IMG/VR virus record: IMGVR_UViG_648276671_000013 | Source of the DNA: a virus | Taxonomy: Duplodnaviria; Heunggongvirae; Uroviricota; Caudoviricetes | Direction: 5' to 3' (one strand) | DNA: 11,964 bases | Shown: positions 1 through 11,964 of the stretch, piece after piece | Position numbering within the stretch: position 1 is the stretch's first letter | Layout of the letters: each line of letters starts with the position of its first letter | The notes under the pieces: model-generated | What the model saw: only the letters and a program-made list of their open reading frames with translations | What the model was told of the DNA's origin: nothing | The model's database searches: none | Program-made: the position numbers and the translations under genes

Positions 1-1266
1 ATGAAGCTCAGCGCCAGACAGGTCGAGACCGCAAAACCAAAAGATAAAACCTACAAAATGGCCGATGGCGGCGGTTTGTACCTTGAGGTTTCGGCCAAAG
101 GATCAAAATATTGGCGTATGAAATACAGACGCCCCTCTGACAAAAAAGAGGATCGCCTCGCTTTTGGTGTTTGGCCTACTGTGACGCTTGCTCAGGCAAG
201 AGCAAAGCGCGATGAAGCCAAAAAGCTATTAGTGCAGGGCATTGATCCAAAAGCCGAACAGAAAGAGGCTCAGGCCGAGAACTCGGGGGCATATACTTTC
301 GAAACCATTGCTCGTGAATGGCATGCCAGCAACAAGCGCTGGAGTGAAGACCATCGATCTCGCGTTCTTCGATATCTTGAGCTTTATATCTTCCCTCATA
401 TTGGTTCGTCCGATATTCGTCTACTCAAAACCAGCCACCTGTTAGCCCCAATTAAAAAAGTTGACGCTAGTGGAAAACACGACGTCGCTCAGCGCCTGCA
501 ACAGCGTGTAACGGCCATTATGCGTTATGCTGTACAGAACGATTACATTGACTCGAATCCGGCCAGTGATATGGCTGGTGCGCTATCTACAACCAAAGTG
601 CGACATTACCCTGCGTTACCTTCCTGCCGGTTACCTGAGTTTCTTGCACGTCTCGCTGCATATCGTGGTCGTGTAATGACACGGATCGCAGTCGAGCTTT
701 CCTTACTGACTTTTGTGCGTTCCAGTGAGTTACGTTTCGCGCGTTGGAATGAGTTCGACTTCGATAAAGCCCTTTGGCGCGTACCTGCAAAGCGGGAGGA
801 AATTAAGGGGGTGCGTTACTCGTATCGTGGTATGAAGATGAAAGAGGAGCATATTGTTCCGCTTAGTCGTCAGGCGATGAATTTGTTAGGCCAGTTGAAG
901 CAGATTAGTGGTGATAAGAAACTGCTTTTCCCGGGCGATCATGACGCAACTAAGGTTATGAGTGAAAACACAGTAAACAGCGCATTACGGGCGATGGGAT
1001 ATGACACTAAAACCGAAGTTTGTGGGCATGGATTTAGAACGATGGCGCGTGGTGCACTGGGGGAGTCGGGGCTATGGAGCGATGATGCGATAGAGCGTCA
1101 GTTAAGCCATACAGAACGAAATAATGTACGCGCGGCTTATATCCATACTTCTGAGCATTTGGACGAACGTCGATTGATGGTACAGTGGTGGGCTGATTAT
1201 TTGGAAGAGAATAAACTAAGAATGATAACACCATTTGATTACGGGAAAATATCTAATATAAAGTGA
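1..1266 (+). CDS. int: Tyrosine recombinase, P4-family integrase (421 aa)
   Basis: ORF starts at window position 1 with an N-terminus typical of P4-like integrases (...TAKPKDKTYKMADGGGLYLEVSAKGSKYWRMKYR...). C-terminal catalytic region has HGFRTMARGAL (His-x-x-Arg box) and VRAAYIH with a candidate catalytic Tyr. Sits next to the cargo hotspot as in P4. Confidence 0.9.
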   Translation: MKLSARQVETAKPKDKTYKMADGGGLYLEVSAKGSKYWRMKYRRPSDKKEDRLAFGVWPTVTLAQARAKRDEAKKLLVQGIDPKAEQKEAQAENSGAYTFETIAREWHASNKRWSEDHRSRVLRYLELYIFPHIGSSDIRLLKTSHLLAPIKKVDASGKHDVAQRLQQRVTAIMRYAVQNDYIDSNPASDMAGALSTTKVRHYPALPSCRLPEFLARLAAYRGRVMTRIAVELSLLTFVRSSELRFARWNEFDFDKALWRVPAKREEIKGVRYSYRGMKMKEEHIVPLSRQAMNLLGQLKQISGDKKLLFPGDHDATKVMSENTVNSALRAMGYDTKTEVCGHGFRTMARGALGESGLWSDDAIERQLSHTERNNVRAAYIHTSEHLDERRLMVQWWADYLEENKLRMITPFDYGKISNIK

Positions 1267-1324: not shown

Positions 1325-2217
1325 TTAAACATCTTCTCGACGTTTAGAGTTTGCGCGATATAGCGTTCTGGTTATATGGGATGTGAAATAGTCCTCATCT
1401 AAAAAATGCAATAATCTTTTTACATCTTTTCTTATTTGCGGCATTTTTATTTTTTCTAATTCACCGATTTTTTCAGTTTCTAGAACAACACCAATTTCAG
1501 CCGCTGATATTCTTAACTCAGTCACAGAGTAGTCCTCAAGTATTCTTGATTTATTAATCAAGGAAACTTTCTTTCTAATAACAGAGTCAGCAATTGTTGT
1601 TAAATCAAAACCCGGAGCTACTGAAAATTTTTCATGAGAAGAAAAACTTGTTAATTCTTCATTAGTGGCTTCTCTGAAATAAGCATCTACATCAAATATC
1701 CTGCGGAGCATATGGAAGCTTTTAAACTTTAATTCTGTACCTGCAAGAATAGCTGTTAGCTTATTGTCGATGACTATACCATGCTCAGTAGACTGGCAAA
1801 AGGTATTGCTTGCCTGAAATGGTTTTTGGAAAATTGTTCTTCTGTTATCAATAACTTGCCTTTTATCGAAGCTTTGGATTAAGGCAGTTGCAGGTTTTCC
1901 ATCCTCTTCAGGATAGCCTGAAAACAGAGCGATTATATTGAAGACTGATATTTCTTCCGGCTCCCATGGAGGGATAGTTGTGGGATTATTAATAGCATCT
2001 AATACAGCGATAACATCATCAAAGTCAGGAATGACAAAAAACTCATCTCCACTAGTGATGTAGCCACCTGAAAATTCTACGCCTTCTGTATAGCGTTCTT
2101 CAAAAAAGTTTTTTGTTCATTGAATAGCTGTGTGATTACATTTTGAGTCGGCCTGTCAGTAACAATTTTTACAATGCGTGTGCCAACTGTATTATCTGTT
2201 ATTGCAAACAATTCCAT
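1325..2217 (-). CDS. Cargo protein B, about 297 aa if one nucleotide is restored in the A6/T6 run at 2101-2116; as written it is frameshifted (N-terminal 46 codons from ATG 2217 end at TAG 2077-2079, the rest is in another frame)
   Basis: The frame of the 128-aa ORF (1325..1711) stays open for 135 more codons upstream (to 2116) with no ATG/GTG/TTG. An ATG at 2217, 8 nt after the upstream gene stop, opens a 46-codon ORF in a different frame. The two frames meet in CAAAAAAGTTTTTTG. AT-rich. Product identity unknown. Confidence 0.6.
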
Positions 2218-2225
2218 ATTTATTC

Positions 2226-2741
2226 CTATATTGCTATATATGTGTAATCAGTAAGCTTAATCAAATTAACACGATTGCCTGATGCTTTTAACAGTGGCTT
2301 TTTCGATAATATAACAAAGCTTACGCCTGTATCGTCTTCGGCTTCATAATATTTATATCCCCAAAATGATAATAATGGGTTGAAACTGTAGGAACCTGAA
2401 AAACTGATGTAAAAAAATAAACTCACAGCAAAGAAAGAAGCAATCCTAATATCCATAAATGCATCTGGACCACTGATTAAGGGAAATAAATAGGTTAAGA
2501 AATAATTTGTTATCTCCTTATCTGCTGGAGAAGCGGTAGTTAATTTTTTACTGGTTACAGAATTATATTTAATTGCGTATTTAACAATCAAAACACACAG
2601 TAAAAGTATAATTGCACACAATGATAAGTAAGCAATCATAAATTTATAGTGTTTTGATATACATGAAAGAAAAGCTAAGGTAAAAAATACCGGAGCAACT
2701 GAGCTGGCAGTAAGAAGATATTTGGCAAGCTTATTTAACAT
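2226..2741 (-). CDS. Small integral membrane protein, 171 aa, four predicted transmembrane helices (cargo protein A)
   Basis: Four hydrophobic stretches (LLTASSVAPVFFTLAFLSCI, MIAYLSLCAIILLLCVLIVKYAI, ITNYFLTYLFPLI, IRIASFFAVSLFFYISFSG). Strong SD AGGAGG 5 nt upstream of ATG. Stop is 8 nt from the start of the next gene, so operonic. Confidence 0.8.
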   Translation of the reverse strand: MLNKLAKYLLTASSVAPVFFTLAFLSCISKHYKFMIAYLSLCAIILLLCVLIVKYAIKYNSVTSKKLTTASPADKEITNYFLTYLFPLISGPDAFMDIRIASFFAVSLFFYISFSGSYSFNPLLSFWGYKYYEAEDDTGVSFVILSKKPLLKASGNRVNLIKLTDYTYIAI

Positions 2742-2914
2742 ATTATCCTCCTTATCTGCCCTAGTATCTGTATATAAAAACAGTATAACATCAATTTAAG
2801 CATCAAAGAAGATAATAAAAATCAATTAAATCATAATGATGCCTGCGTTTTTAAAGTGTGGGCTTTTGGAGGCGGGTAATGTACGCGCGTATTCCCTGGA
2901 GATTCCATTTAAAA

Positions 2915-2930
2915 GGCTACGTATGTAGCC
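2915..2930 (-). terminator. Intrinsic terminator candidate downstream of the 103-aa gene
   Basis: GGCTAC-gtat-GTAGCC hairpin; on the minus-strand RNA it is followed by UUUU. Lies 9 nt past the stop at 2939. Confidence 0.4.
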
Positions 2931-2938
2931 TCATGTAT

Positions 2939-3250
2939 TTAAGAGTACTGGCCCCAATCTCTGGCAATAAACCAGTTTGGCGTCCAGCTAACAAACTCTT
3001 GCGGATGAAAGTTTTGAGGGATTACAACTAGAGATACAATCGCTTCAGGTTGCAAACTGAGAACATGACTTTTTTTATCGCTTTCGTAATCCCAAAAATG
3101 GAATCTGTCACTTTTATCATGAGCTCTACGACTAGGACCGAAGTCCATAGGCGCAGTTAATCTTGTGATTGTCGCGTTATCTTCTTTTGAATAAAAAGTT
3201 AGCTGAATTTTTAAACAACTATGAATGGCATCAATGAATTTATCGCGCAT
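2939..3250 (-). CDS. Hypothetical protein, 103 aa, monocistronic cargo gene adjacent to cos
   Basis: ATG preceded by AAGGAG SD. Own terminator hairpin downstream, and about 197 bp of AT-rich spacer before the next gene. No recognisable motif by eye. Confidence 0.7.
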   Translation of the reverse strand: MRDKFIDAIHSCLKIQLTFYSKEDNATITRLTAPMDFGPSRRAHDKSDRFHFWDYESDKKSHVLSLQPEAIVSLVVIPQNFHPQEFVSWTPNWFIARDWGQYS

Positions 3251-3559: not shown

Positions 3560-4132
3560 TTACACAGACTGACGTGATGCCAGTTGCGCACTTTTACGCG
3601 AAAAAATCATGTTCTGCGCAGGAGTGAATTTTTCACGGCTGTCATCCACCGAAGCCGCGTCAGGCCTGAATCCGATGGTCGTTAAAATGTCGCTATCCTG
3701 TGCGGAATAATTAATTTTTTCCCCCTTCGCAAGCCAGGACAGAAGGGCTTCACGCAGGGCATCTGTGGCACGCTGTATGGCACAGTTTCGGGCAATGGCC
3801 GTCAGCTCACTGTAGCCCATCAGCTCCGGTGCCAGTGCCGCCGCCAGTGCTGTGCCGTGCTGCTGCATAAAATCATTCAGCCGGTCGCGGATGCTGATGT
3901 ACTGAACGGCTTCATGCGAACGAATATAACGACCGGCGGCCTGATTCACCTGCCATTTTCTGACTTCGATAATATTGCGTAATTCGTCCAGGCGACTGAC
4001 GTTTCTGCCTTCTCCTGACAGAAGCCGCAGGTATTCCTGTTCGGCCGCTGCCAGCTCATTTTTGCGTTGCAGCCATGCTGCTTTGTTATTCTGACAGGTG
4101 TCAAAGGCCTGCTGTAAGGCTGTGCTTTCCAT
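3560..4132 (-). CDS. psu: Polarity suppression protein Psu (190 aa)
   Basis: Length and sequence (MESTALQQAFDTCQNNKAAWLQRKNELAAAEQEYLRLL...) match recalled P4 Psu. Last gene of the late operon. Confidence 0.92.
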   Translation of the reverse strand: MESTALQQAFDTCQNNKAAWLQRKNELAAAEQEYLRLLSGEGRNVSRLDELRNIIEVRKWQVNQAAGRYIRSHEAVQYISIRDRLNDFMQQHGTALAAALAPELMGYSELTAIARNCAIQRATDALREALLSWLAKGEKINYSAQDSDILTTIGFRPDAASVDDSREKFTPAQNMIFSRKSAQLASRQSV

Positions 4133-4205
4133 CGTTATCTCTTTCTCATCATGCTGAAGAATAAAAATACGGTGTGCGGCGACGGCCGGTGTTAACCGGC
4201 AGCCC

Positions 4206-4706
4206 TCATTCCAGACGCAGCGAATATGATTGTGTTTTTAAGCGTACTGGCGGCAGTTCCTGTTTTTCATGCAGGCTTTCTGCCAGTTCGTCCGGCGTGA
4301 CCGGGCGGACAATGAAACGGTTGATGGTCTGAAGCGTTTTAAACACCAGACCACAGCCCGGATCCGTGCACACATAAAAACGCTCGGTGACTTCCTGAGA
4401 CAGACGCCTCGATGTTCTTGACAGTGCAAGGCCTTTACATCTCCGACAACAATATCCGGTAACAAGCATTCTTTTCGGGCGTTTCATACTGCCGGAGGCT
4501 GACGTCAGTGAATCGCGGTATCTCTGTTTGCCTGAAATGTATTCCATTCCTGAATCTTTACTGTCAGAGAAAAAGCTTTCACTCGCTTCAAATGTCGCAG
4601 AGCAATAAATATTCCGGCACTGTGCAATCATTATCTTGGTGCCATCGTCCATGAAATGTGCGCGGCGGGTGTGAGCAACATGTCCACACGACGGGCAGTA
4701 AATCAT
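4206..4706 (-). CDS. delta: Delta, Ogr-like zinc-finger late-gene transactivator (166 aa, two Ogr-like halves)
   Basis: CPSCGHVAHTRRAHFMDDGTKIMIAQCRNIYCSATFEASESF is an Ogr-type zinc finger, and a second C-x2-C ... C-x4-C half follows. Length matches P4 Delta. The ATG overlaps the sid stop as ATGA. Confidence 0.92.
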   Translation of the reverse strand: MIYCPSCGHVAHTRRAHFMDDGTKIMIAQCRNIYCSATFEASESFFSDSKDSGMEYISGKQRYRDSLTSASGSMKRPKRMLVTGYCCRRCKGLALSRTSRRLSQEVTERFYVCTDPGCGLVFKTLQTINRFIVRPVTPDELAESLHEKQELPPVRLKTQSYSLRLE

Positions 4707-5437
4707 GACAGCAGTCCTCTGGCCTTAAGCTCTGCACCCTGCTGGTCTATTTTGTCCTGCCACACCTTGCGCTGTGCCGGTGTGCCTGCCACCTCATAAT
4801 CCATGTGCGGGAGTGTTGCCGCTGACAGTCCGGTCAGCCGGAGAACCGGCTCGCCGGTGAGGCTGATTTGCATCTGTTTAATTTTCTGTTCCAGCGATGA
4901 TTTCACCTGCTGCATGACAGCTTTATCGGGTGCGACGTAGCCCTGATGGCCGGTGGTGTTGGCGAGCGGATTTTCCTGTACCAGGATACTCAGATGCATT
5001 GCCCGGACAAGCGCCTCACAGGTTTCATTCAGGGCGTGTTCCAGCTCATGCTCTGCATACAGACTCAGAAGGTGATGATGTGCCTTCCGGTAGGCGGTGG
5101 CCGTGCTGTCACACGCCCCTTTCAGGCGTTCACGTTCGAAATTCAGCACCACGGCCAGATTGTCATATTCCTGTACCAGCTCCCGGCGTGCCACGCGCTC
5201 AATATGGCGCTGTTTCAGCTCATCGCTCAGGACACCACCGGCTGCACGAAAGGCCGTGCGCCAGTCGTCAGCGTCGTTTCCGTCGGCCTGCACCAGCGCA
5301 TTTTTTTCCTGCTCTGCCCGTTCAATGGCCGCGACGGTCTCATCCATCAGGCGGGCGTTCTCAAGATGGGCGGCTCTGGCCTTTTCCAGTTGTGCCAGTG
5401 CGGGTTGCAGATATTCAGGGATAGTGTGGTCAGACAT
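4703..5437 (-). CDS. sid: Capsid size determination protein Sid (244 aa from the second ATG)
   Basis: The ORF track starts at 5455, but a GAGGAG SD lies between the two ATGs and the 5437 start gives the 244 aa recalled for P4 Sid (MSDHTIPEYLQPALAQLEK...). Confidence 0.9.
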   Translation of the reverse strand: MSDHTIPEYLQPALAQLEKARAAHLENARLMDETVAAIERAEQEKNALVQADGNDADDWRTAFRAAGGVLSDELKQRHIERVARRELVQEYDNLAVVLNFERERLKGACDSTATAYRKAHHHLLSLYAEHELEHALNETCEALVRAMHLSILVQENPLANTTGHQGYVAPDKAVMQQVKSSLEQKIKQMQISLTGEPVLRLTGLSAATLPHMDYEVAGTPAQRKVWQDKIDQQGAELKARGLLS

Positions 5438-5509
5438 TTTCCGGCTCCTCGTCACTTCAGGTTAAGAAAATTGTGACGTACACCGGACAACAACACGACG
5501 CATTGCAGA

Positions 5510-8040: not shown

Positions 8041-10374
8041 ATGAAAATGAACGTAACCGCCACCGTCAGCCATGCGCTCGGCCACTGGCCGCGTATTCTC
8101 CCGGCGCTGGGGATTCAGGTGCTGAAAAACCGTCATCAGCCCTGTCCGGTCTGTGGCGGGAGTGACCGCTTCCGTTTTGATGACAGGGAGGGGCGCGGCA
8201 CCTGGTACTGCAATCAGTGTGGTGCCGGTGACGGCCTGAAACTGGTTGAAAAGGTGTTTGGTGTCTCCCCGTCCGACGCGGCCGCAAAGGTGGCTGCCGT
8301 GACCGGCAGCCTGCCCCCGGCTGACCCGGCAGTGACGGCTGCCGCCGGTGCTGAAACAGACGCTGCCCGGAAGAACGCCGCCGCACTGGCACAAACCCTG
8401 ATGGCGAAAACCCGTACCGGAACCGGTAACGCCTACCTGACCCGCAAGGGCTTTCCCGGCCGGGAATGCCGGATGCTGACCGGCACACACAGAGCCGGTG
8501 GCGTGAGCTGGCGCGCCGGTGACCTTGTGGTGCCACTGTATGACGACAGCGGCGAACTGGTTAACCTTCAGTTAATCAGCGCTGACGGCCGTAAGCGCAC
8601 CCTGAAAGGCGGGCAGGTCAGGGGCACCTGTCACATCCTTGAAGGACAGAATCAGGCCGGAAAACGTCTGTGGATAGCGGAGGGATACGCGACCGCACTT
8701 ACCGTACATCACCTGACCGGTGAAACGGTGATGGTGGCGCTTTCTTCCGTGAACCTCCTTTCTCTGGCCAGCCTTGCCCGGCAGAAGCATCCGGCCTGTC
8801 AGATTGTCCTTGCCGCAGACCGTGACCTCAGCGGTGACGGCCAGAAAAAAGCCGCCGCAGCCGCAGATGCGTGTGAAGGTGTTGTTGCCCTGCCGCCGGT
8901 CTTCGGTGACTGGAATGATGCCTTCACGCAGTACGGCGGGGAAGCCACCCGTAAGGCCATTTACGATGCCATCCGGCCACCGGCTGAAAGCCCGTTCGAC
9001 ACCATGAGCGAAGCGGAGTTTTCCGCCATGAGTACCAGCGAAAAGGCCATGCGTATCTATGAGCATTACGGCGAGGCGCTCGCGGTCGATGCCAACGGCC
9101 AGCTTCTGTCCCGTTATGAAAATGGTGTCTGGAAGGTGCTGCCACCACAGGACTTTGCCCGGGATGTGGCCGGGCTGTTTCAGCGGCTGCGTGCGCCGTT
9201 CTCCTCCGGGAAGGTGGCCTCCGTGGTGGACACCCTGAAGCTGATTATTCCGCAGCAGGAAGCCCCCTCCCGCCGCCTGATTGGCTTTCGTAACGGCGTG
9301 CTCGACACGCAGAACGGCACGTTCCACCCGCACAGTCCGTCACACTGGATGCGCACCCTGTGCGATGTGGATTTCACCCCGCCGGTGGACGGTGAAACGC
9401 TGGAAACCCACGCTCCCGCGTTCTGGCGCTGGCTTGACCGTGCCGCCGGTGGCCGTGCGGAAAAACGCGACGTGATTCTGGCCGCACTGTTTATGGTGCT
9501 GGCAAACCGCTACGACTGGCAGCTCTTTCTGGAGGTGACCGGTCCCGGCGGCAGCGGCAAAAGTATCATGGCCGAAATAGCCACCCTGCTGGCCGGGGAG
9601 GATAACGCCACGTCGGCCACCATTGAGACGCTGGAATCCCCGCGTGAACGTGCCGCGTTAACTGGCTTCTCACTGATACGCCTGCCGGACCAGGAAAAAT
9701 GGAGCGGCGACGGTGCCGGACTCAAGGCCATCACCGGCGGCGATGCGGTGTCCGTTGACCCGAAATACCGGGATGCATACTCCACGCATATCCCGGCGGT
9801 GATTCTGGCCGTGAACAATAACCCGATGCGCTTCACCGACCGCAGCGGCGGCGTGTCACGCCGGCGGGTGATTATTCACTTCCCGGAACAGATAGCCCCG
9901 CAGGAGCGCGACCCGCAGCTTAAGGACAAAATCACCCACGAGCTGGCGGTCATCGTGCGTCACCTGATGCAGAAGTTCAGCGACCCGATGCTCGCCCGGT
10001 CACTGCTTCAGTCCCAGCAGAACTCAGACGAGGCGCTGAACATCAAACGGGATGCCGACCCGACGTTTGATTTTATCGGCTATCTGGAAACCCTGCCGCA
10101 GACCAGCGGCATGTATATGGGGAACGCCAGTATCATCCCGCGCAATTACCGTAAATACCTCTATCACGCCTATCTGGCCTACATGGAGGCAAACGGCTAC
10201 CGGAATGTACTCAGTCTGAAAATGTTCGGGCTGGGGCTGCCGGTGATGCTGAAGGAATACGGACTGAATTACGAGAAGCGCCATACCAAACAGGGGATAC
10301 AGACCAACCTGACGCTGAAAGAGGAAAGCTACGGCGACTGGCTGCCAAAATGTGAAGACCCTGCAACAACCTGA
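8041..10374 (+). CDS. alpha: Alpha protein: bifunctional DNA primase-helicase (777 aa)
   Basis: N-terminal primase zinc finger (CPVCGGSDRFRFDDREGRGTWYCNQCG), central TOPRIM-like region, C-terminal Walker A (GPGGSGKS) of a D5/SF3-type helicase. Length equals P4 Alpha. Confidence 0.95.
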   Translation: MKMNVTATVSHALGHWPRILPALGIQVLKNRHQPCPVCGGSDRFRFDDREGRGTWYCNQCGAGDGLKLVEKVFGVSPSDAAAKVAAVTGSLPPADPAVTAAAGAETDAARKNAAALAQTLMAKTRTGTGNAYLTRKGFPGRECRMLTGTHRAGGVSWRAGDLVVPLYDDSGELVNLQLISADGRKRTLKGGQVRGTCHILEGQNQAGKRLWIAEGYATALTVHHLTGETVMVALSSVNLLSLASLARQKHPACQIVLAADRDLSGDGQKKAAAAADACEGVVALPPVFGDWNDAFTQYGGEATRKAIYDAIRPPAESPFDTMSEAEFSAMSTSEKAMRIYEHYGEALAVDANGQLLSRYENGVWKVLPPQDFARDVAGLFQRLRAPFSSGKVASVVDTLKLIIPQQEAPSRRLIGFRNGVLDTQNGTFHPHSPSHWMRTLCDVDFTPPVDGETLETHAPAFWRWLDRAAGGRAEKRDVILAALFMVLANRYDWQLFLEVTGPGGSGKSIMAEIATLLAGEDNATSATIETLESPRERAALTGFSLIRLPDQEKWSGDGAGLKAITGGDAVSVDPKYRDAYSTHIPAVILAVNNNPMRFTDRSGGVSRRRVIIHFPEQIAPQERDPQLKDKITHELAVIVRHLMQKFSDPMLARSLLQSQQNSDEALNIKRDADPTFDFIGYLETLPQTSGMYMGNASIIPRNYRKYLYHAYLAYMEANGYRNVLSLKMFGLGLPVMLKEYGLNYEKRHTKQGIQTNLTLKEESYGDWLPKCEDPATT

Positions 10375-10390
10375 CCCTCATGACTCATCT

Positions 10391-10415
10391 GACCGGCATC
10401 TGCCGGTCTTTTTTT
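10391..10415 (+). terminator. Rho-independent terminator after alpha
   Basis: GACCGGCA-tc-TGCCGGTC stem followed by T7, 17 nt after the alpha stop. Confidence 0.7.
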
Positions 10416-10430
10416 ATCCCTGAATTCCCC

Positions 10431-10710
10431 GAAGGTGAACAATCCACTGTTCACCCTTCACCGTATATTCACCTGTTATCACACTGAAATTAAAAGAGAA
10501 AAACGAAAGGTGAACAGTGTGAACAATCAAATCAAAAAAAACTTTTTTTCTCCCTGTGTGATTTTCAGTACGGGGGATTAATCACCGGTATGAGTCACAC
10601 CGGCAGAATGCCGGAGGTGAAGAATCGAATGTTCACCCTTCACCCATTATTCACCACCTATCATACTGAAATAAAAGGAGAAAAAAGAAAGGTGAACAGT
10701 GTGAACAGTT
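10431..10710. repeat. crr-like region: two roughly 100-bp direct repeats each carrying TGTTCACC/GGTGAACA iterons
   Basis: Repeat 1 (about 10431-10530) and repeat 2 (about 10612-10710) share GGTGAA...TGTTCACCCTTCACC...ATTCACC...ACTGAAAT(T/A)AAAAG(A/G)AGAAAAA(C/A)GAAAGGTGAACAGTGTGAACA. Matches the recalled P4 crr organisation. Confidence 0.55.
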
Positions 10711-10920
10711 CTTTCGAAAAAAAAATTTTTATGTGGATAAAAGATGCACTGGTTTGGATCCGGGCTACGGATCCAAACTTACTGATTAAAAATTATTTAA
10801 CTTTCCGATTTATTGATGGGCTGAAAATAGATTGGTCAGAAAAACAGTGGGGGCACAAAAGGGGGCATATTTCATTGTTGTGTTTTATTATTTGTTTTTT
10901 ATCATTAACTTATTTTAATG

Positions 10921-10942
10921 TTTGAGTCCGGCCTTCGCACCA
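10921..10942 (+). other. att core remnant: degenerate copy of a tRNA-Leu (leuX-type) 3' end
   Basis: TTTGAGTCCGGCCTTCGCACCA resembles the recalled tRNA-Leu 3' end TTCGAGTCCGGCCTTCGGCACCA with one substitution and one missing G. No tRNA body upstream (AT-rich), so this is a core repeat, not a tRNA gene. Confidence 0.5.
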
Positions 10943-10955
10943 AAAGTATGTAAAT

Positions 10956-10979
10956 AGACCTCAACTGAGGTCTTTTTTT
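10956..10979 (+). terminator. Rho-independent terminator just downstream of the att core
   Basis: AGACCTC-aact-GAGGTCT followed by T7; positioned like a tRNA gene terminator. Confidence 0.55.
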
Positions 10980-11142
10980 ATGCCTGAAATCCGCACCACG
11001 CAAGGCTTTTCCAGCTTTTCTCCTCAACTGAAGTCAACCTGACTCAACCCACATCAACAGGCTTGTGAGTATACTAATAAGCATATTTGCCGATTCGATA
11101 TTGCTTGTATACTCACGAGATACCAATGGAAGGAAGACCATT

Positions 11143-11964
11143 ATTGCCCTAACGGATACTAAAGTTCGTTCTGTGAAGTCAGAGGAGAAAGAGTATTCAC
11201 TTGTTGACGGCGACGGCATGTCTTTACTTGTAAAACCTGGCGGTTCAAAGTATTGGTGATTTCGTTTCCGTTCTGGTGGTAAACAACATTTGATGGCGTT
11301 CGGCGTTTACCCGGATGTTTCGCTGGCGGATGCGCGGAAGAAAAGGGAAGAGGCCAGAAAGCTGGTAGCTGCTGGTATCGATCCTCGTGAGCATAAACGT
11401 GCTGTGAAAGAAGAGCAGGCGAAAGAGATTATTACTTTCGAGAAGGTTGCCAAATAGTGGCTCGTGACCAACCAAAAATGGTCGGAATATCATGCTAATC
11501 GTCTAAAAAGAGCCTGGAGGAGAATATCTTCCCGGCAATTGGTGCTCGTAATATTGCTGAACTGGGCACCCGCGATCTGTTAATTCCCATTAAAGCTGTG
11601 GAGAAATCCGGACGTCTTGAAGTGGCTCCTTCAACAGCGCACCACGGCCATCATGCGTTATGCAGTGCAAAGCGGGTTAATTGATTACAATCCGGCGCAA
11701 GAGATGGCGGGGGCGGTTGCTTCCAGTAATCGACAACATCGTCCGGCGCTGGAATTAAATCGCATCCCTGAGTTGCTTGAGAAAATAGACAGCTACACCG
11801 GCAGGCCGCTAACCCGCTGGGCAACGGAACTCACTCTACTTATCTTCATCCGCTCCAGTGAACTGCGTTTTGCTCGCTGGTCAGAAATCGATTTTGAAAC
11901 GTCAATGTGGACCATCCCTCTTGATGGGCATTGCAGTAAGCTGAGGGTTGGACTGGTATTGTAA
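11143..11964 (+). pseudogene. Second P4-family integrase, disrupted (start codon lost, two in-frame stops, at least two frameshifts); continues to the window edge
   Basis: Three reading frames together spell an integrase paralogous to int at 1-1266 (IALTDTKVRS...GGSKYW*FRFRSGGKQHLMAFGVYPDVSLADARKKREEARKLVAAGIDP...VAK*WLVTNQKW...TTAIMRYAVQSGLIDYNPAQEMAG...ELRFARWSEIDFETSMWTIP). Confidence 0.8.

Follow-up and report, generated by a model that had tools for sequence, protein, structure and literature searches.

The attachment site of phage P4 (attP) and the attR of the P4 prophage at leuX (X51522; Pierson and Kahn 1987) are the closest described counterparts of the locus reported here. For CP4So, a prophage inserted at ssrA, it was shown by experiment that excision dependent on Int and AlpA moves a one-base deletion from attR into ssrA, and that, with the deletion, a G.U pair in the acceptor stem is destroyed and tmRNA no longer functions (Zeng et al. 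2016; PMC5148205). Islands at pheV that carry P4-type integrases have an attR ending in ...CCGG-CACCA (Table 1 of PMC11537424). In this study, the right-hand end of a prophage was analysed in a viral DNA stretch of 11,964 nucleotides (IMG/VR record IMGVR_UViG_648276671_000013), referred to as the window. The window is a P4-like satellite prophage, with the order int, cargo ORFs, psu/delta/sid, a vis/alpA-type gene and alpha.

The right-hand junction at leuX

Positions 10381–10942 of the window were 96% identical to positions 4078–4638 of phage P4 (X51522), the match covering the alpha terminator, crr, the left arm of attP and the core. The match ended at 10942, which corresponds to the last base of the annotated 20-bp attP core of P4, at the CCA, and from 10943 onward the sequence was the 3′ flank of leuX as found in Escherichia coli K-12. 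The first-pass annotation had placed the right-hand attachment junction here, which these limits bear out. A tRNA-Leu-like 3′ end with CCA had also been proposed at 10921–10942 (TTTGAGTCCGGCCTTCGCACCA); this sequence aligned to the 3′ end of leuX, the gene for tRNA-Leu(CAA) (TTCGAGTCCGGCCTTCGGCACCA), with one substitution and one 1-nt deletion. ARAGORN found zero tRNA genes in the whole window, as expected for a 3′ fragment.

The full P4/leuX core of 20 bp is GAGTCCGGCCTTCGGCACCA, and 19 of its 20 positions are present in the attR of the window. Compared with P4 attP and leuX, its sole defect is the loss of one G (TTCGGCACCA to TTCGCACCA), at tRNA position 70/71. The core had been described as degenerate, which is correct for the missing G but not for the T in GTTTGAG; this T is normal, is present in P4's own attP and lies outside the 20-bp core. 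Since the allele lacking one G is the majority form of natural P4-like attR sites, it is no argument against membership in the P4 type.

The stretch to the left of the core is AT-rich, as first noticed, with a GC content of 31% at 10711–10920 versus 50% for the whole window. The strong intrinsic terminator predicted 13 nt 3′ of the CCA was likewise found, with a stem at 10956–10973 (7 pairs) followed by T7 and a fold of −15.7 kcal/mol (z = −5.9). This terminator (10956–10979) is part of leuX and its downstream DNA, and not of the element. A search of Rfam with 10300–11200 returned nothing meaningful.

E. coli strains 2D, 100117, EC17CM2 and NY1601 showed the layout of the window (leuX-int...alpha-crr-attR), and all four had an intact leuX with a perfect core approximately 164 nt to the left of int. 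The window begins at the ATG of int, and the direct repeat at attL was compared in these close relatives only. In 682 complete E. coli genomes, leuX was followed by the P4-type int-proximal right (P′) arm. An empty-site comparison, proposed in the first-pass annotation, was provided by strain 702/18, which has the downstream genes of 2D and the same neighbourhood without the element.

As expected for a P4-type site, the attachment site is located directly 3′ of the alpha gene, t-alpha and crr, and the element encodes both the cognate P4-family integrase and a Vis/AlpA excisionase, as identified by Pfam (Table 1). The end of the P4 homology at the core, the leuX flank following it and the same layout in the relatives together indicate an attR of a P4-like satellite at leuX. 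Judged by its sequence, the region 10731–10942 comprises the left (P) arm and the core of a P4-type att site in its integrated form. The best explanation of the whole, which we consider very probable, is the attR of a P4-like satellite in the leuX 3′ end, with a recurrent core lacking one G. An attR of this kind at leuX is an already known and ordinary junction. It sets the right boundary of the satellite at 10942 and aids in delimiting the element and its defence-gene cargo. The element had been read as ending here without gop/beta/cII-like genes on this side; the end stands, and the remark on the genes is moot, because P4-like prophages have such cargo at the opposite end, between int and psu.

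Table 1. Features of the satellite prophage and its right-hand flank in the window
Feature	Position	Strand	Remarks
int, P4-family tyrosine integrase	1–1266	+	Pfam Arm-DNA-bind_3, Phage_int_M, Phage_integrase
psu, delta, sid	3560–5455	−	
vis/AlpA-type excisionase gene, 88 aa	5989–6255	+	Pfam Phage_AlpA, E = 5e-21
alpha primase, 777 aa	8041–10374		
t-alpha, alpha operon terminator	10391–10415	+	Identical to the annotated terminator of P4; called by terminator scan
crr, two direct repeats of ~120 bp with alpha-binding repeats of the TGTTCACC type	10429–10730		Copies at 10429–10548 and 10611–10730; repeat family; P4 annotation under the match
31-bp dyad, TGGTTTGGATCCG-GGCTA-CGGATCCAAACTT, containing the 11-bp palindrome	10750–10780	.	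Conserved in leuX-type left (P) arms
Two tandem 12-bp arm-type integrase repeats, GTGGGGGCACAA and AAGGGGGCATAT	10847–10858, 10859–10870	+	Identical to the two copies of P4's annotated "attP arm sequence repeat"
IHF-like site (putative), TATCATTAACTTA	10900–10912	+	One mismatch to WATCAANNNNTTR; read from sequence
attR core, 19 bp, GAGTCCGGCCTTCGCACCA	10924–10942	+	20-bp P4/leuX core minus one G
leuX 3′ flank with leuX intrinsic terminator	10943–10992	+	Identical to K-12 leuX downstream; stem 10956–10973, T-run to 10979
intB-like P4-family integrase pseudogene, neighbouring leuX island	11146–11964	+	Translation with in-frame stops

The two arm-type repeats, which the first-pass annotation had passed over, carry the motif GGGGGCA. 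They lie approximately 55–75 bp to the left of the core and were kept in all diverged leuX-type arms; in the same arm alignment, the TCA-N-TTA/G block of the IHF-like site was conserved. By analogy with P4- and lambda-type systems, the N-terminal arm-binding domain of the integrase would bind the two repeats and its catalytic domains would bind the core, while IHF would probably bend the AT-rich spacer. Vis/AlpA would direct excision, in which this core would recombine with the identical sequence at the leuX end, left of int.

The integrase pseudogene is outside the element and is part of a neighbouring leuX-associated island; its homologue in strain 2D is a pseudogene labelled "internal stop; incomplete" in RefSeq. 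The stem sequence of the leuX terminator, CCTCAACTGAGGTC (10959–10972), occurs again as CCTCAACTGAAGTC (11022–11035), 63 nt downstream and before this dead integrase, and the CCTCAACTGAAGTC repeat could be an arm-type site that belongs to the neighbouring island. The tail of t-alpha (10405–10428, GGTCTTTTTTTATCCCTGAATTCC) and that of the leuX terminator (10969–10992, GGTCTTTTTTTATGCCTGAAATCC) were identical at 22 of 24 positions, with stems that are similar too. The alpha module may long ago have picked up DNA from the leuX flank, or the likeness may be due to chance.

The cargo region between int and psu (1325–3250, minus strand) contains ORFs of 128, 171 and 103 aa. The 128-aa ORF gave a weak match to KwaB (Kiwa), limited to the C-terminal part of the profile, and in NY1601 a full KwaB-like gene of 297 aa was found with the same two neighbours; the gene in the window may be a truncated Kiwa-like defence gene. 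In relatives, TIR, restriction-modification or ParA cargo takes its place. Another ORF (10590–10925, plus strand, 111 aa) extends across crr and the att arm and is named "integrase" or "hypothetical protein" in some RefSeq genomes. It had no match in a Pfam search and overlaps crr and the arm, and it was rejected as a real gene; these annotations are probably spurious.

Among loci L085 to L164 from IMG/VR, elements with an alpha protein 99% identical to that of the window carried four different int/att modules (leuX, thrW, ssrA and selC), each with its own arm-repeat sequence even at this level of alpha identity. The presence of one alpha type with four modules indicates that the integration module is freely swapped, with a breakpoint just 3′ of crr.

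The one-base deletion and the position of strand exchange

The core was surveyed in 80 alpha-containing loci from other genera and 80 from IMG/VR, with unique sequence contexts being counted. Displaced target copies lacking the nucleotide 7 nt from the terminal A of the 3′ end were found at four targets. At leuX, where CGGCACCA becomes C-GCACCA, 21 copies were deleted and 2 perfect; thrW, with the same change of motif, had 12 deleted and 1 perfect; ssrA (GCTCCACCA to GC-CCACCA) had 21 and 3, respectively, and selC (CTTCCGCCA to C-TCCGCCA) had 3 and 18. The right flanks differed widely, indicating that the junctions are independent. The target gene copies were intact in 47 of 48 contexts and deleted in 1, and a search for the deletion in attL did not find it, attL being always intact. 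The same one-base deletion is present in the attR of CP4-57 in K-12.

At least 34 of the 40 best E. coli matches to the attR of the window had the 131-nt span expected for the deletion, span length being an unreliable proxy for the allele, as NY1601 combines the deletion with one additional T in the T-run of the terminator. The attR was verified to be perfect in 100117 and EC17CM2; the loci with a perfect copy include L167, L168 and L020. The attP of laboratory P4, the only proven free attP obtained, also has a perfect core. No leuX-type attP pattern of the free form was found in IMG/VR or in plasmids, and no tandem or attP-like leuX junctions were found in complete E. coli genomes.

Two P4-free E. 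coli genomes, 702/18 (L165, 3001–3084) and BS-04 (L166, 3001–3084), have a leuX of 84 nt with exactly the deletion of the window. In both, the gene is joined directly to the leuX terminator and annotated as tRNA-Leu, with one G missing from the acceptor stem, and the chromosome has no other leuX match. The 84-nt leuX looks like an excision scar, in agreement with what was published on ssrA prophages, and the two strains may be without functional tRNA-Leu(CAA). Together with the CP4So experiments, these scar genomes are indirect evidence for activity of the site in Int-mediated excision. If strands are exchanged 5′ of the deletion or across it, excision would write the deletion into leuX and produce an 84-nt defective tRNA gene; with the exchange so placed, the element of the window probably leaves a defective leuX behind, and its loss would cost the host tRNA-Leu(CAA).

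The deletion was also observed at junctions that have the int-proximal arm of another element on their right, namely in four metagenome contigs, at L062 and in several ssrA cases. The four contigs, which read alpha-crr-arm-core-arm-int and whose short length leaves circular genomes and tandem arrays indistinguishable, were all deleted, and the deleted ssrA junctions adjoin CP4-57-type int arms. In the right flank of the window itself, an integrase follows 207 nt further on. Because a functional 3′ end is expected where an int-proximal arm lies on the right, the deletion at these junctions suggests that it comes in with the element, and they are hard to explain if the deletion is always on the host side of the crossover. 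The scars and CP4So on one side, and the int-arm junctions on the other, are compatible only if position 70 is inside the exchanged segment or at its edge.

A joint reading of these observations can be offered tentatively, as one possibility. The loss of position 70 would be no damage but a family-wide, element-associated allele (leuX, thrW, ssrA, pheV and some selC), located within the strand-exchange segment or at its border. When a deleted attP integrates, a heteroduplex would result, the segregation of which would leave an intact tRNA gene at attL and a deleted attR. On excision, the deletion could pass into the tRNA or tmRNA gene, which would be a built-in penalty for element loss, and the dyad of the left arm (see below) would be an accessory or secondary core-type Int site.

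Alternatively, the deletion could be part of the left arm of the element, 5′ of the crossover, and be inherited with attP, in which case excision would always restore an intact leuX. The attP-like or tandem junctions (P arm-core-P′ arm-int) are consistent with this, since all four in the metagenome contigs and also L062 are deleted, as are the ssrA junctions beside a CP4-57-type int arm. The attL sites, which are always intact, fit as well. However, the deletion is present in the P4-free leuX of 702/18 and BS-04, excision of CP4So does transfer it (PMC5148205), only 6 bp (GCACCA) are common to attL and attR to the right of it, and the attP of laboratory P4 is perfect. We regard this alternative as unlikely. 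With its crossover 3′ of the deletion, it is contradicted as the sole explanation by the two scar genomes and CP4So, and it was kept as a rival.

The wider pattern could carry more weight than the junction itself. If P4-family elements routinely break a tRNA or tmRNA gene on excision, this would be a general addiction-like mechanism stabilising satellites and islands at tRNA genes. The 84-nt leuX would then serve as a sequence marker of past element loss, and the crossover of the integrase would be placed near tRNA position 70. The deletion pattern is a modest lead and the only one worth following.

The left-arm dyad and other accounts of the core defect

A perfect 11-bp inverted repeat with the spacer ggcta had been reported in the AT-rich arm. 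It was found as GTTTGGATCCG (10752–10762) and CGGATCCAAAC (10768–10778), separated by 5 nt, and by our own estimate approximately 0.02 perfect 11-bp repeats with short loops are expected by chance per 12 kb. Folded as RNA, the palindrome gave −19.9 kcal/mol (z = −6.2), and 0 of 200 shuffles folded as well. The 31-bp dyad that contains it was present in every diverged leuX-type arm, approximately 172 bp to the left of the core, with the consensus CGGTTAGGATCCG-N5-CGGATCCTAACCG. Thirteen distinct versions were found among these arms, and the spacer varied freely. A search of thrW-, selC- and ssrA-type arms showed the dyad to be absent from them.

Across the 13 versions, 89% of positions were paired versus 87% in shuffles; covariation was not above the shuffled control, and no compensatory changes were seen. 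Conservation of the sequence without covariation or a T-run is the pattern of a dimeric protein-binding site and not of a selected hairpin, and the dyad is probably a protein-binding site. Each half-site matches the T arm of leuX (CGGTTCGAGTCCG) at 10 of 13 positions. Our best guess is that the dyad is an accessory or secondary core-type integrase site.

That the palindrome instead acts as an RNA hairpin or terminator, keeping transcription of the alpha operon and crr from running on into the att site, appears improbable. It is placed downstream of alpha and crr, and the hairpin is stable on both strands (−19.9 and −18.3 kcal/mol); however, a T-run is lacking on either strand and the terminator scan did not call it. 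An immediate T-run after the GC-rich hairpin, as in an intrinsic terminator, was looked for at 10752–10778 and was absent. In addition, the arms were kept as sequence in the 13 diverged versions with their mismatches uncompensated, and the dyad travels with the leuX-type int/att module, not with the alpha/crr module.

A rearranged end was observed in Klebsiella sp. WOUb02 (L043, 12690–12720). Here the left half of the dyad is the last part of the element and is fused to GGTTTCGCACCA and host flank. The fusion sequence, ...GGTTTCG joined to CACCA plus flank, is without the arm repeats and the normal core, as if the DNA from the centre of the dyad to the core had been deleted.

Ordinary random decay of a displaced tRNA fragment, with the prophage locked in the chromosome, is a very improbable cause of the core defect: although displaced fragments are free of selection for tRNA function, and the perfect attR of L167, L168 and L020 would be expected if the deletion arose after integration, the same nucleotide was lost at four target genes, in many genera and beside many right flanks, and at pheV too (PMC11537424), the T lost at ssrA is outside any repeat, so that slippage is no explanation, and CP4So excises despite its deletion (PMC5148205). 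The core deletion is a recurrent allele of P4-family junctions rather than random decay.

Comparison with known systems

The window and P4 share the order alpha, t-alpha, crr, dyad, two arm repeats and core. Three differences were noted. The attP core of P4 matches the leuX 3′ end perfectly over 20 bp, whereas that of the window is one G short; one base of the dyad loop differs (GGCTA in the window, AGCTA in P4); and the window has the integrated form, with the leuX flank on the right side instead of the int-proximal arm of attP.

CP4-57 of E. coli K-12 and CP4So of Shewanella, prophages with P4-type integrases at ssrA, have a target fragment without the nucleotide 7 nt from the end, like the window, and share with it an AlpA/Vis-type excisionase. 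They are different in target gene and arm-repeat sequence, and they are large cryptic prophages rather than satellites. Transfer of the deletion was shown for CP4So by experiment (PMC5148205), and for leuX it is suggested by two natural scar genomes. The right flank of the CP4-57 attR (L084, 22573–22600; ATCATGATTGG) resembles the int-proximal arm of ssrA-type P4-like satellites (AATCATGATCCG), and K-12 may keep a remnant of such a satellite downstream of CP4-57.

GI-pheV and, at leuX, PAI II of strain 536 and KpLE2 also have P4-type integrases and, as in the window, are integrated at tRNA 3′ ends with imperfect right-hand repeats; the attR of GI-pheV lacks 1 nt at the corresponding position (PMC11537424, Table 1). 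The dead integrase from 11146 onward belongs to a tRNA-linked island of this kind. These islands are different from the satellite in being much larger, in having no alpha/crr replication module and in often having lost their right ends. The att sites of lambda-type heterobivalent integrases follow the same logic: they combine a core with arm-type repeats, their AT-rich spacers hold an IHF-like site, and an excisionase gives the reaction its direction. They are without sequence relationship to the site in the window, the target of which is a tRNA 3′ end.
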